DNA from: an uncultured Chloroflexia bacterium
GTDB taxonomy: Bacteria > Chloroflexota > Limnocylindria > Limnocylindrales > CSP1-4
DNA: 64,000 nucleotides
NCBI GenBank assembly: GCA_963832105.1
Contig: CAWHSS010000003.1
Span: forward strand, 472,131 to 536,130
Direction: 5' to 3'
Shown here: piece after piece, positions 1 through 64,000 of the stretch
Layout of the letters: the number at the start of each line of letters is the position of its first letter
Numbering within the stretch: the first letter of the stretch is position 1
Program-made: the position numbers and the translations under genes
Notes under the pieces: model-generated
Database searches by the model: none
What the model saw: only the letters and a program-made list of their open reading frames with translations
Told to the model about the DNA's origin: nothing

Positions 1-892
1 CGGCGCCGTCGCGGTAGGCGAGCAGCTCGCCGTCGAGGATCCCATCCCAGCTGAGCGTCACGGCCGCCTCGACGACCTCCGGGAACTGGCCGCTGACGTC
101 GTGGAGGTCCCGGCTGTAGAGCCGAACGTCGCGGCCCTGCTTGTGGAGCTGGGCCCGGATGCCGTCGTACTTGTCCTCGACCCAGACCTCCGGGCCGAGC
201 CGGCCGAGGATCTCTGCAGCGTCCTCCGCGGGCGAGGCGAGCATGAACTTGATCGGGTGGAAGACCGCGAGGCTCGCGTCGCCGAGCCGGTTCTCGCGAG
301 CGAGCGCGGCCAGCTTGCCGACGTCGCCGGTCAGCATTCCGGCCCACTTCACCTCGTCGAGCGGCCGGTCGTAGGCGCGGGCGATCGCCGCTTCCACGAG
401 CCCTTCTCGCAGGCCGATGCGGAGCTCGCCGGCGAGGACCTTGACGATGTACTTGGCCGTGAGGGGGTCGGAGCGGGCGAAGAGGTCGCGGAGGATGGCT
501 CCCTTGGCCGCCGCCCCGGAGGCCGCCTCGATCGCGGCGTAGGCCTGGGCGACCTCCGGCAACGTCGGCGAGACGTCCGGGTCCGGCGCATGGCCGGCGG
601 CCGACAGGACGTCGGCGACCGCCATCCCCAGATCCGACGAGCGGTCGTACGCCTCGCCGAGGGCCGACCTCGGCACCCCGGCCAGCTGGGTCACGGTCGA
701 CACGATCGCCGACCAGCCGAGCCCGGCGGCCCGCTGGTCCGCCTCGGCGAACGGGCGGCCGGTCAGGAAGACGGCCGCAATCGGCAGCTCGTCGGGGCTC
801 AGGTCGGCGAGGTAGTCAGCGAGGAGGGCCGTCTTCTCGGAGGTGCGGGTCGTGGCTGCGACGCGCTCGGCCAGCTCGCTCCAGCGACGCAT
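1..892 (-). CDS. ATP-dependent DNA ligase, N-terminal ~297 aa (C-terminal part runs off the window start)
   Basis: Not in the ORF track because it has no stop in the window. Manual reverse translation from ATG (892-890) gives MRRWSELAERVAATTRTSEKTALLADYLADL..., then adenylation motif I EDKYDGIRAQLH (KxDGxR). Confidence 0.85.
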   Translation of the reverse strand, partial: MRRWSELAERVAATTRTSEKTALLADYLADLSPDELPIAAVFLTGRPFAEADQRAAGLGWSAIVSTVTQLAGVPRSALGEAYDRSSDLGMAVADVLSAAGHAPDPDVSPTLPEVAQAYAAIEAASGAAAKGAILRDLFARSDPLTAKYIVKVLAGELRIGLREGLVEAAIARAYDRPLDEVKWAGMLTGDVGKLAALARENRLGDASLAVFHPIKFMLASPAEDAAEILGRLGPEVWVEDKYDGIRAQLHKQGRDVRLYSRDLHDVSGQFPEVVEAAVTLSWDGILDGELLAYRDGA

Positions 893-1733
893 GGCCGGGA
901 TGGTATACCGTCACTTCGAAATGGCTCACCGCAGCTGGTTCCCGGAGGCACTGGTCGGGACGAGCATCGTCCTGCGGCGCCACGTGCCCGCGAACCTCGC
1001 CCAGTTCCTGCGCTGGTACTCCGACGCGGAGGTCGCCCGCCTGACGCGCTACCAGGACGGCCCGATGCGACCGGAGGAGATCGAACGGTTCTTCACCGCC
1101 CGGGCGCTCGGCCCGGAGTCGCTGTCGCTGGCGGTCCACATCCGCGAGACGAACCGGCTCATCGGGACGTGCGCGCTGTCGCAGCTCGACAGCGACAACG
1201 GCTCGGCGCTGTACCACATCACGATCGGCGAGAAGGACATGTGGGGCCGCGGCTACGGCACCGAGGCGACCCGGCTCATGCTCGACCACGCCTTCGGGAC
1301 GCTGAACCTCCACCGGATCGCGCTGTCGGTCTTCTCGTTCAACGAACGTGCGATCCGCTCGTACCGCTCGTGTGGGTTCGTCGTCGAGGGCCGGGCGCGC
1401 GAGGCGATCTGGCGGGACGGCCAGTGGTGGGACGAGGTGTCGATGAGCGTCCTCCACTCCGACTGGGCGGCGCTGCGAGGCGCGGCCGACGCGTCCGCCG
1501 ACGCATCCGCCGACGCGCCGACCGCTGCGGAGGAGGAAGGCCGGTGGAGCCGCGCAGGCCCCGGCCGCGGGGATCTTCGGCCGGCGGCGATGAGCTCTAC
1601 CGGAGCGGCCGCCGACGCGGCACGGGCGGAGTTCCGGGAGCTGCATGGAGGCGAAGGGCCACGCGGTCGACAACGCCCGTGCGGCGGTGGCCGGGCTCGA
1701 GGCGGCGTTCGCGTCGGGCGCGCTCGTTCGTGA
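891..1733 (+). CDS. GNAT family N-acetyltransferase (RimJ/RimL-like); 3' end uncertain
   Basis: In frame with ORF 843..1733; ATG at 891. The GNAT core carries motif A (WGRGYGTEATRLMLDHAF) and ends near 1480. The Ala/Asp/Ser- and Arg/Gly-rich tail after that looks like read-through. Confidence 0.75.
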   Translation: MAGMVYRHFEMAHRSWFPEALVGTSIVLRRHVPANLAQFLRWYSDAEVARLTRYQDGPMRPEEIERFFTARALGPESLSLAVHIRETNRLIGTCALSQLDSDNGSALYHITIGEKDMWGRGYGTEATRLMLDHAFGTLNLHRIALSVFSFNERAIRSYRSCGFVVEGRAREAIWRDGQWWDEVSMSVLHSDWAALRGAADASADASADAPTAAEEEGRWSRAGPGRGDLRPAAMSSTGAAADAARAEFRELHGGEGPRGRQRPCGGGRARGGVRVGRARS

Positions 1734-1870
1734 CCCCGACCCTCGATCTCTTCCTGGCGGACCTCATGAACGCTCTCGAGCAGGACGAGGGCCAGAAGCT
1801 CGGCGGCAAGAGCGCCGAGGCGGCCCGGTTCATCCTCCGCGCCATCGACCGCGAGCTGGATAACGCGTAG
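1645..1870 (+). CDS. Small ribbon-helix-helix-like protein, frame-broken near 1725
   Basis: MEAKGHAVDNARAAVAGLEAAFASGALV (ORF 1645 frame) continues in the 101..1870 frame as VTPTLDLFLADLMNALEQDEGQKLGGKSAEAARFILRAIDRELDNA*. This reads as a strand plus two helices, as in CopG-like domains. Weak call. Confidence 0.3.
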
Positions 1871-1934
1871 CTCGCACCTGCGCGGCCCAGCCAGGGCTTG
1901 ACTCTCGACCTACCCGAGGGTCCACGATGCGGAC

Positions 1935-2753
1935 GTGGATGACGACCTGCTGTCGATCGGGCGGTTCGCGCGGCTCGCCGGGCTGAGTGTCGGGGCGCTC
2001 CGGCACTACGACGAGCTCGACCTGCTCCGGCCGGCCGACGTCGATCGATTCACCGGCTATCGCCGCTATCGGCGGGAGCAACTCGAGACCGCCCGGGCCA
2101 TCGCGCGGCTCCGGGAGCTCGAGCTGCCGCTCGACGAGATCCGCGAGGTCCTCGCGATCGACGATCCCGCCGAGCGCGCCCGCCGCCTCGCCGCCCACCG
2201 CGCACGCATCGAGGCGCGGACATACCGCCTCCAGCGCGTCCTCCACCACGTGACTCAGCTGTCGAAGGGAGAACCCATCGTGTCCCGTCCACCCGTCGCC
2301 CCCGAGCTCGACCAGGCCACCCGCCGCGCCCTGGCCGTCGGGCTGTTCAACTACACGTGGACGCTGCTCGAGAACCCGAACCGCTCGAAGGAGCAGGACG
2401 ACGAGATGCTCCACGCCGCCCACGCCTCCCGCTACCACTGGGGCGAGGTCGGCGAGGCCGTCAACCTCGCCCGCGGCGAGTGGCAGGTGTCGCGGGTCTA
2501 CTCGGTCCTGGGTCGCGGCGAGCCCGCCCTGTACCACGCCCGGCGCTGCGTCGAGATCAACGAGGCGAACGCCGACGGCCGCGAGGACTGGGACCTCGGC
2601 TCGGCGTACGAGGCGATGGCCCGGGCGTCCGCGGTCGCCGGCGACCGCGCGGCGAGCGACGAGTGGAAGGCGCGAGCGGTCGCAGAGCTGGCGAAGATCG
2701 GCGACGCTGAGGACCGCCAGGTCCTCGAACAGGACATCGCGACGCTGCCCTAG
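1935..2753 (+). CDS. MerR family transcriptional regulator with C-terminal effector domain
   Basis: ORF 1935..2753 (GTG start). N-terminal MerR HTH: LSIGRFARLAGLSVGALRHYDELDLLRP...FTGYRRY. Confidence 0.85.
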   Translation: MDDDLLSIGRFARLAGLSVGALRHYDELDLLRPADVDRFTGYRRYRREQLETARAIARLRELELPLDEIREVLAIDDPAERARRLAAHRARIEARTYRLQRVLHHVTQLSKGEPIVSRPPVAPELDQATRRALAVGLFNYTWTLLENPNRSKEQDDEMLHAAHASRYHWGEVGEAVNLARGEWQVSRVYSVLGRGEPALYHARRCVEINEANADGREDWDLGSAYEAMARASAVAGDRAASDEWKARAVAELAKIGDAEDRQVLEQDIATLP

Positions 2754-2840
2754 CCGCGCCGTCATCGCCGACCGAAGACTGAGCCGCGCCGCCGCGCCTA
2801 GACTTGGGTCCACGCACACCCTCGGAGGCCCACGCAGCCC

Positions 2841-63166: not shown

Positions 63167-63216
63167 GATGGGTGCTCCTTGGAAGGATTCGATGGTCCGG
63201 GTGGGAACTGGGGCAG

Positions 63217-63444
63217 TCAGGCGACAACCTCATCGCCGGCCGACAGCCAGCGGATGAGCGTCGGCACGAGGGCGATGGCGGACACGCCGACGAGCACGTA
63301 GATGACACTCGAGATCATGTTCGTCTGGCCGAACTCGGCGCCCGTGAGGGCCGCGACCAGGTCGATCTTGGCGAGCCCAACGAGCAGCCAGTTGACGCCG
63401 CCGACGATGACGAGGAGCAGGAACAGGGCCTTGAGGTAGCGCAC
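63217..63444 (-). CDS. DUF378 family small membrane protein
   Basis: GTG 63444 is preceded by AAGGAG. VRYLKALFLLLVIVGGVNWLLVGLAKIDLVAAL... Confidence 0.75.
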   Translation of the reverse strand: MRYLKALFLLLVIVGGVNWLLVGLAKIDLVAALTGAEFGQTNMISSVIYVLVGVSAIALVPTLIRWLSAGDEVVA

Positions 63445-63495
63445 GCGAGTCTCCTTTGCGTTCGACCGTTCACCGGCGAGTGCCGGTTGTCTAAG

Positions 63496-63563
63496 GTCTG
63501 TACAGACTTTAGCCGGCATGTGAGGGCTTGTCAAGCGTTCGTGCGCGTGTATGCTGTACAGAC
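63496..63563. promoter_or_regulatory. Divergent control region: two CTGTACAGAC palindromic boxes flanking a TTGTCA-16 nt-TATGCT promoter
   Basis: GTCTGTACAGAC at 63496-63507 and CTGTACAGAC at 63554-63563. TTGTCA at 63528-63533 and TATGCT at 63550-63555. The ATG follows at 63565. Confidence 0.4.
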
Positions 63564-63564
63564 C

Positions 63565-64000
63565 ATGTACAACATCAGCCAAGCCGCCGCGCGAACGGGA
63601 CTGACCGTGCCCGTTCTGCGGGCGTGGGAGCGCCGATATGGGATCGTCGAGCCCCGCCGCAGCCCGGCCGGCTACCGGATCTACGACGAGGGGGCGATCG
63701 CCCGACTCGCGGCAATGCGTCGCCTCGTGCAGGCCGGTTGGTCGCCGAGCGCGGCGGCCGCGGCGATCAAGTCAGGAACGGCCCCGGCCGATATCGCGGA
63801 CCCCAGCTCTCCCGGCGATGCGGTCGCGCCGGCTGACCGGCCGGCGAACTCGGATCTCGACCGGTCGTTCGTGGACGCAGCCGGCAACCTCGACTCGGAC
63901 CGGCTCGAGGTGCTCCTCGACGACATGTTTGCGCGGGGCTCGTTCGAACGTGTGGCCGATGAGCACCTGATGCCCGCCGTCGTCGCCCTCGGGGACGCGT
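63565..64000 (+). CDS. MerR family regulator, probably cobalamin-binding LitR/CarH-like (3' end off window)
   Basis: Not in the ORF track because it has no stop in the window. Manual translation: MYNISQAAARTGLTVPVLRAWERRYGIVEPRRSPAGYRIYDE...FERVADEHLMPAVVALGDA, which resembles the B12-binding helical-bundle start. Confidence 0.75.
   Translation, partial: MYNISQAAARTGLTVPVLRAWERRYGIVEPRRSPAGYRIYDEGAIARLAAMRRLVQAGWSPSAAAAAIKSGTAPADIADPSSPGDAVAPADRPANSDLDRSFVDAAGNLDSDRLEVLLDDMFARGSFERVADEHLMPAVVALGDA

Follow-up and report, generated by a model that had tools for sequence, protein, structure and literature searches.

Decay of bacterial genomes, as in Mycobacterium leprae and recent endosymbionts, spares essential genes, leaves pseudogenes to neutral evolution, and proceeds chiefly by deletion. 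Frame breaks of another kind arise in long-read assemblies, where small indels surviving polishing split conserved genes, which can be rejoined by means of intact homologues (proovframe; bioRxiv 10.1101/2021.08.23.457338). The profile that is usually described for the consensus of Nanopore data consists of homopolymer indels (PMC9262707), and raw PacBio CLR reads contain approximately 8% insertions versus 3% deletions (quoted in the introduction of the proovframe paper, bioRxiv 10.1101/2021.08.23.457338). The MFD-LR catalogue, which is Nanopore-only and was assembled with metaFlye and one Medaka round, reported Nanopore-associated errors and low coding density in its lower-coverage metagenome-assembled genomes (MAGs) (PMC12313526). 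Here, we analyzed a stretch of 64,000 nucleotides (hereafter the window; G000:C3:472131-536130) of a Chloroflexota assembly designated G000 (2.51 Mb, four contigs, 70% GC). An original prediction made from the letters of the window had claimed approximately 48 indels in approximately 25 of about 66 genes. Independent detection found 50 frame-breaking events in 26 of 69 genes, and we consider, with a probability of roughly 0.93, that they are uncorrected consensus errors of a noisy long-read assembly and not mutations of the organism.

G000 is a soil Chloroflexota MAG resembling Candidatus Limnocylindrales. With the intact soxB gene as the query, the relatives retrieved were MAGs listed as Chloroflexota, “uncultured Chloroflexia” or Candidatus Limnocylindrales. 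Collinear 80-kb blocks from five same-genus genomes (G004, G005, G009, G015, and G017) served as the main references, and five fragmented same-genus MAGs of 150–630 contigs each formed an additional reference set. G015 and G017 are well assembled and 92% complete. G009 (MFD08497.bin.2.148) and G017 (MFD02242.bin.1.318) are both MFD-LR MAGs, the former error-ridden and the latter clean. According to Pfam annotation, the gene content of the window is ordinary metabolic.

Frame breaks in the window

Frame breaks were detected along three lines. A codon-usage Viterbi frame tracker, trained on the long open reading frames (ORFs) of G000 itself, revealed many same-strand frame switches within expected single genes of the window. 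The original prediction had proposed that orthologous proteins be aligned to the DNA to place the indels. When intact ORFs from the five collinear genomes were compared with the window by tblastn, orthologous ORFs were indeed split into collinear window pieces with alternating frames, and nearly all junction remainders were +1 base. The DMGDH-like ORFs of G015 and G017 (830 aa), for instance, matched six window pieces with 82–100% identity. Stop-to-stop ORFs of the relatives are noisy references, as a GC content of 70% lengthens antisense and run-through ORFs and G004, G005, and G009 are themselves broken; they were replaced by Viterbi-filtered ORFs and lineage assignment at the nucleotide level.

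The third line was nucleotide alignment to the five relatives, with each indel assigned to a lineage. It yielded 76 small indels specific to the window with lengths that are not multiples of three (63 insertions and 13 deletions). Fifty-nine of the 76 were intragenic, and 46 of these had an independent frame signal with the sign that the indel predicts, either a Viterbi switch or a tblastn hop. Four more breaks, found by the Viterbi tracker only, lie in a 4-kb stretch lacking in close relatives. The 50 events, nearly all single extra bases, correspond to 0.83 per kb of coding sequence.

This count agrees with the original prediction, and so do many of its details. The three sites that it quoted were located at 6949–6961, 7679–7689, and 18614–18623, matching independent insertion calls at 6950, 7679, and 18613. 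Its seven events in the DMGDH-like gene, three in the enolase-superfamily gene, and three in the glutamine-synthetase-like gene were reproduced, the last with one additional weak event, and the deletions that it placed in the alcohol dehydrogenase gene and paaA were found at approximately 5194 and 35537. Of the genes that it listed as clean, soxB and the 1.6-kb APC permease gene remained so, and weak events were found at the boundary of paaJ (32139) and in the mak-like gene (43965). The affected genes are as follows; supporting relatives are those of the nucleotide alignment, and positions of single events are mostly approximate.

904–1866, plus strand: GNAT acetyltransferase gene (Pfam Acetyltransf_3), with extra bases at about 914, 1643, and 1728 (three to five relatives; Viterbi +2/+0/+1); an additional comparative insertion at about 1548–1555 came without a frame signal.
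3778–4227, plus strand: small hypothetical gene, with an extra base at about 3881 (five relatives; tblastn hop against G004, G005, and G009; Viterbi +0 to +1).
4252–5472, minus strand: iron-containing alcohol dehydrogenase gene, with a missing base at about 5194 and an extra base at about 5275 (four to five relatives; Viterbi); Pfam Fe-ADH and ADH_Fe_C span the joined pieces.
6871–7260, minus strand: soxG (sarcosine oxidase gamma), with an extra base at about 6950 (five relatives; frame hop).
7261–9444, minus strand: soxA (sarcosine oxidase alpha), with an extra base at about 7679 (five relatives); Pfam GCV_T 1–255/255 across the join.
9550–11990, minus strand: DMGDH-like gene (DAO + FAO_M + GCV_T + GCV_T_C), with seven breaks at 9556, 9732 (missing base), 10158, 10715, 11420, 11839, and 11872, all supported by five relatives; Pfam domains complete.
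12025–13632, minus strand: MttB-family methyltransferase gene, with an extra base at about 12890 (five relatives); Pfam MTTB 1–500/500 across the join.
13633–14850, minus strand: enolase-superfamily (MR/MLE) gene, with extra bases at about 14063, 14210, and 14609 (five relatives each; frame hops); Pfam MR_MLE_C.
14854–16110, plus strand: OpuAA-like ABC ATPase gene with CBS domains (Pfam ABC_tran + CBS), with extra bases at about 15683 and 16053 (comparative insertions; Viterbi +0 to +1 at 15685; frame hops against G005, G009, and G015).
17785–18625, plus strand: OpuAC substrate-binding protein gene (Pfam OpuAC), with an extra base at 18613, directly before the stop codon (three relatives).
18712–20184, plus strand: aromatic amino acid lyase (HAL-like) gene, with extra bases at about 18922 and 19407 (three relatives each; hops against G004, G005, and G009); Pfam Lyase_aromatic is divided over the pieces.
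21028–21585, plus strand: hypothetical gene, with breaks at about 21225 and 21350 (four to five relatives) and at about 21459 (Viterbi only).
27058–28905, minus strand: ABC-2-like membrane protein gene and ABC ATPase gene, with breaks at about 27180, 27525, and 28512, called as same-strand +1 Viterbi switches in a stretch missing from close relatives; Pfam ABC_tran 1–137/137 across the join at 28512.
32140–33237, minus strand: 3-hydroxyacyl-CoA dehydrogenase (paaH-like) gene, with an extra base at about 32292 (five relatives; hops against G004, G015, and G017; Pfam 3HCDH_N and 3HCDH); the weak missing base at 32139, at the paaH/paaJ junction, has two references.
35044–36039, minus strand: paaA, with a missing base at about 35537 (five relatives; hop remainder 2); Pfam PaaA_PaaC 4–263/263 across the join.
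36793–38991, plus strand: KdpD-like sensor kinase gene (extra bases at 37449, 38302, and 38316) and OmpR-type response regulator gene (extra base at 38531), with three relatives each, Viterbi switches, and frame hops; Pfam DUF4118, HisKA, HATPase_c, Response_reg, and Trans_reg_C.
39475–41424, plus strand: APC-family permease gene with a C-terminal extension, with an extra base at about 39895 (three relatives; Viterbi +2 to +0); Pfam AA_permease_2 5–406/427 across the join.
42634–44070, minus strand: mak-like kinase gene, with a weakly supported extra base at about 43965 near the 5′ end (three relatives; hop with G005 only; no Viterbi switch), which may lie upstream of the true start.
44071–45354, plus strand: MGT-type glycosyltransferase gene, with extra bases at about 44488 and 44681 (four relatives each; hops against G005, G009, G015, and G017).
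52861–54300, plus strand: class II fumarase/aspartase gene, with an extra base at about 53797 (five relatives; hop in all five references); Pfam Lyase_1 1–312/312 across the join.
56674–57459, minus strand (with its neighbor, 56674–57681): PadR-associated membrane gene, with confirmed events at 56915, 57044, and 57140 and comparative events only at 56770, 56779, 57235, 57241, and 57255.
Within 56674–57681, minus strand: small gene adjoining the membrane gene, with a missing base at about 57491.
61126–62598, plus strand: glutamine-synthetase-like gene, with extra bases at about 61476, 62065, and 62292 and a weak one at about 61155 (five relatives each; four pieces in all five references); Pfam Gln-synt_C 3–344/344 across the joins.

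One of these breaks is masked by a long ORF (14869–16791; 640 aa). The OpuAA-like ATPase gene shifts frame at 15683. The ORF, an artefact of the high GC content, covers the 3′ part of this gene and extends into the permease gene in the wrong frame. As the wrong frame stays open, the break escapes ORF-based screening.

Genome-wide spread and dependence on the assembly

A reference-free classifier, which counts same-strand frame switches without a stop codon at the junction, detected 994 frameshift-like junctions in G000, with 0.35–0.42 per kb on each of the four contigs and with 790 shifts of +1 versus 204 of +2. Every 20-kb bin of the genome was hit, and the window is typical, having 30 junctions compared to a genome mean of 25 per 64 kb. 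Within the window, the classifier caught approximately half of the 50 events, and about four of its 30 calls were true gene boundaries. Given this recall and the few false calls, G000 probably carries approximately 1,500 frame-breaking events. The 71.9% completeness of G000 was considered as a proxy for the error load and was dropped, as the assembly comprises 2.5 Mb compared to 3.4–3.8 Mb in its relatives and is probably truly incomplete.

The same classifier returned 0.025–0.05 junctions per kb for G015 and G017, 0.15 for G004, 0.175 for G005, and 0.45 for G009, with a detector background of 0.03–0.05 per kb. On the orthologous stretch of the five fragmented MAGs, the value was 0.044 per kb, compared to 0.875 per kb at 4–20 kb of the window by the same detector. 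G009 has private insertions of its own, with an insertion bias of 32:4, at sites that differ from those of G000. The original prediction had stated that its joining of gene fragments would be wrong if orthologs shared the split architecture; the orthologues are single intact ORFs in G015, G017, G004, and the five fragmented MAGs. The defect follows the assembly, not the lineage.

Private, insertion-biased frame breaks of the same class were also observed in the few-contig assemblies G009, G005, and G004, at 0.15–0.45 per kb. The completeness of these three assemblies (64–84% at 3.4–3.7 Mb) is probably depressed by the frame breaks.

Essential genes and ribosomal RNA

Breaks in essential genes were determined by mapping intact ORFs of G015 and G017 onto the rpoBC/ribosomal-protein region of G000 and by family identification. 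Frame breaks were found in rplA, rplC, rplF (twice), secY, adk, cysS, rsmA, and one of two tuf copies. The genus carries two copies of tuf, which encodes EF-Tu, located in G000 at C2:251178-252368 and C2:267685-268879. Neither copy is interrupted in G005, G015, or G017; G000 has one broken copy, and in G009 the breaks affect both copies and also rpoB and rpoC. A five-genome alignment of tuf2-rpsJ-rplC contained three private one-base insertions in G000 and six in G009 at other sites, and none in G005 and G015. A cell in which L3, L6, SecY, adenylate kinase, and CysRS are all truncated would be non-viable.

Non-coding sequence is affected as well. Two private one-base insertions are present in the 23S ribosomal RNA (rRNA) of G000, within stretches in which the four other genomes do not vary, and the spacer carries three more. 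These findings indicate a process that does not distinguish coding from non-coding sequence.

Selection on the interrupted genes

The broken genes show no evolutionary decay. The ratio of mismatches at codon positions 1 and 2 to those at position 3, determined against G009 and G005, was 0.20–0.23 in broken genes and 0.20–0.21 in clean genes. In a per-gene mismatch test, the DMGDH-like gene with its seven events and the glutamine-synthetase-like gene were among the most constrained genes of the window, and the hit genes were not the less constrained ones. Real frameshifts under selection would fall in less constrained genes; as this pattern was not seen, an artefact is favored. Apart from the membrane gene at 56674–57459, for which the result is uncertain, the codon-position tests found no relaxed selection in interrupted genes. 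Additionally, Pfam models are complete or nearly complete across the joined pieces, as with MTTB, GCV_T, Lyase_1, and Gln-synt_C.

Indel spectrum

The spectrum was determined from events backed by at least three of the five relatives and comprised 42 one-base insertions versus four one-base deletions, a ratio of approximately 10:1. The inserted bases were nearly even (15 C, 10 G, 9 T, and 8 A) despite the GC content of 70%, and the insertions were uniformly distributed over the codon positions (p = 0.57). The original prediction had described most events as lying in short G/C runs. Depending on how gaps were placed, the inserted base lay in a run of at least two in 31% (by majority) to 60% (at the most generous) of the cases, compared to 47% in simulated random insertion, and the impression of G/C runs is thus attributable to base composition.

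Origin of the frame breaks and alternative explanations

The original prediction had attributed the breaks to uncorrected indel error of a long-read-only assembly. This attribution is supported by the genome-wide spread of the breaks, the intact orthologues, the hits in essential genes and 23S rRNA, the absence of relaxation, and the 10:1 excess of insertions. Most probably, G000 was built from noisy long reads without polishing by accurate reads. A consensus called from too few or too noisy reads would leave a spurious extra base and, much more rarely, a missing base, with a spacing of approximately one error per 1.2–1.6 kb. In coding sequence, such an error would shift the frame, and gene callers would report two or more fragments; in rRNA or spacers, it would appear as a private one-base insertion.

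Several points weigh against this explanation. The position, sign, and privacy of the indels are observed; their technical cause, with the platform and low coverage behind it, is inferred. No excess of homopolymers, including runs of at least three, was found among the 42 insertion sites, and such non-homopolymer insertions are unlike the usual Nanopore consensus profile, which weighs against that profile but leaves a technical origin untouched. In G000, rpoB (1175 aa) and rpoC (1541 aa) span 8 kb without a break, and the zone of rpoB, rpoC, and the ribosomal proteins is approximately 4-fold colder (about 0.2 events per kb), which resembles selective sparing. The density of events is uneven across the genome, with a variance/mean of approximately 2 and without long-range autocorrelation. 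Finally, the membrane gene at 56674–57459 is the sole gene that appears relaxed, with 56% of mismatches at codon positions 1 and 2 compared to 30% in the pooled genes.

This unevenness is genuine, though slight. If 50 events fell at random on the 69 genes, 29–38 genes would be hit, compared to the 26 observed (dispersion P ~0.05). The maximum of seven events in the DMGDH-like gene has P = 0.009 as a maximum statistic and 0.26 after Bonferroni correction; no single gene has a significant excess after correction, and the value for the membrane gene is 1.0 on confirmed events. Event density rises slightly with local GC (rho 0.23), a correlation that is significant but weak. Local GC was therefore rejected as the cause of the uneven density, and it accounts only partly for the cold rpoBC zone. 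It is a plausible speculation that conserved genes drew extra reads from co-occurring relatives during polishing, which would have produced the cold zone.

Among the alternatives, a more specific consensus artefact, in which strain variants are “doubled” at polymorphic sites or methylation motifs are miscalled, is possible but unlikely. The metagenomic source, a weak excess of CG, and the slight rise of event density with GC would suit it. The adjacency of transition partners, expected of doubled strain variants, was 50% compared to a null of 41% (p = 0.15), and the uniform codon positions likewise speak against doubling. As for methylation, no 3- to 5-mer was enriched at the insertion sites after correction, and the CG signal, in which 15 of 42 inserted bases directly follow this dinucleotide on the deposited strand (16% expected), is post hoc, with a Bonferroni-corrected value of approximately 0.05.

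It is rather improbable that nearly all events are artefacts and a few clusters, chiefly that at 56674–57459, reflect genuine decay. This gene holds the densest cluster, with up to eight comparative indels in 0.8 kb, and its mismatch pattern, as well as the lower number of genes hit than expected at random, would agree with such a mixture. However, its frame assignment is uncertain, and many of its indels were called against G005 and G009 only and could be real on the branch of these two genomes. Unresolved frame switches would scramble the assignment of codon positions and thereby mimic relaxation. The original prediction had held that clustering leaves room for decay of particular genes. This does not apply to the DMGDH-like, glutamine-synthetase-like, and enolase-superfamily genes, which are as constrained as the clean genes or more so, and 56674–57459 alone is not cleared; as stated above, no gene has a significant excess.

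Recent, real, genome-wide pseudogenization, with approximately 1,500 frameshifts, for example after loss of repair or in a sheltered lifestyle, is very improbable. The intact rpoB and rpoC, the core translation operons hit approximately 4-fold less than the window, the over-dispersed density, and the relaxed-looking gene at 56674–57459 speak in its favor. Essential genes would also be expected to be spared, but five essential single-copy genes (rplC, rplF, secY, adk, and cysS) are broken, and private insertions occur in invariant stretches of the 23S rRNA. The broken genes are not relaxed, and the most frequently hit gene is among the most constrained. Pseudogenization would further be expected to leave a deletion-biased or slippage-type spectrum, whereas 42 insertions versus four deletions were found, without an excess in runs. 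Mira, Ochman and Moran are said to have described in 2001 a bias of bacterial mutation to deletion, to which the 10:1 ratio of insertions is opposite. Slippage mutation and bacterial deletional bias both fit poorly with random, insertion-dominated events; a mutator would give homopolymer slippage, and none was seen at the insertion sites of the window. Moreover, the same phenomenon occurs, at other sites and densities, in independent few-contig MAGs but is absent from the fragmented MAGs and from two few-contig MAGs that are clean.

It is hardly credible that the extra bases are real and that approximately 1,500 +1 insertions, including those in rplC, secY, and the 23S rRNA, are tolerated via correction at the RNA or ribosome level or, in a milder form, that the subset in 56674–57459 is real and reflects ongoing gene loss. 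Wrong joining of the fragments, with orthologues split alike or programmed frameshifting, found no support and has a negligible probability, as the orthologues are intact single ORFs, the positions are private to G000, rRNA is hit as well, and neither a conserved slippery motif nor a conserved break position was found, no k-mer being enriched.

With consensus error as the preferred explanation, the affected window genes are to be treated as intact. G000 and at least G009, G005, and G004, which are used as species representatives, carry 0.15–0.8 spurious indels per kb, and truncation or chimerism affects about a third or more of the proteins predicted from them. Work that draws on these assemblies to count pseudogenes, analyze pangenomes, or mine protein families will be misled. 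Random single-base insertions at 70% GC also differ from the homopolymer-deletion profile for which users normally screen.

Gene content of the window

The region at 4252–18625 of this Limnocylindrales-like Chloroflexota is a compact osmolyte-catabolism cluster with conserved synteny. It comprises the Fe-ADH gene, soxB-soxD-soxA-soxG, the DMGDH-like gene, the MttB-family methyltransferase gene (non-pyrrolysine type), the enolase-superfamily gene, and an OpuA-type ABC transporter consisting of an ATPase with CBS domains, two permeases, and an OpuAC binding protein. This gene content suggests degradation of glycine betaine to glycine. A span of 45 nt between the soxA start and the end of the DMGDH-like gene (9445–9549) contains three small indels (2, 1, and 2 nt) when compared with G005 and G009. 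With two to three references and without a coding signal, these indels may reflect true variation between genes rather than error.

The block of approximately 4 kb at 26959–30912 encodes an ABC ATPase, an ABC-2-like membrane protein, a sensor histidine kinase, and a LuxR-type response regulator. It is missing from G005 and G009, where its flanks are 22–676 nt apart, and is a strain-specific insertion within a variable region.

Two modules, at 54391–55041 and 56353–57681, are paralogs in which a PadR-family regulator is paired with a multi-pass membrane protein. Both membrane proteins share the N-terminal motif RLYP.AWR.RYE.E, and the indel load is heavy only in the second module. A HipA_2-like kinase gene at 45355–46542 is followed directly by a DUF3037 gene, and both are intact. 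Pfam annotation also identified a paa (phenylacetate) cluster, two-component systems, permeases, a class II fumarase/aspartase gene, and a glutamine-synthetase-like gene in the window.

Comparison with known systems

G000 shares with M. leprae-type decay a large fraction of genes interrupted by frameshifts. It differs in that essential genes and rRNA are hit, signatures of selection are intact, and insertions are dominant.

Similarities to the MFD-LR MAGs are the few contigs, the probable lack of short-read polishing, and an error load that varies by MAG; membership is shown for G009 and G017. However, the errors described for that catalogue are tied to long homopolymers and low GC (PMC12313526), whereas G000 has 70% GC and an insertion-dominated, non-homopolymer spectrum. 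PacBio CLR data are likewise rich in insertions, which fall mostly at random with respect to context, and in this they resemble the 42:4 spectrum of G000, but the published figures refer to raw reads and not to a consensus, and the nearest defective relatives come from a Nanopore project. With regard to the problem addressed by proovframe, G000 is an instance of it, with no difference in kind. Overall, the frame breaks in G000 are not a biological feature but the known residual-indel problem of long-read assemblies, here with an unusual non-homopolymer spectrum.

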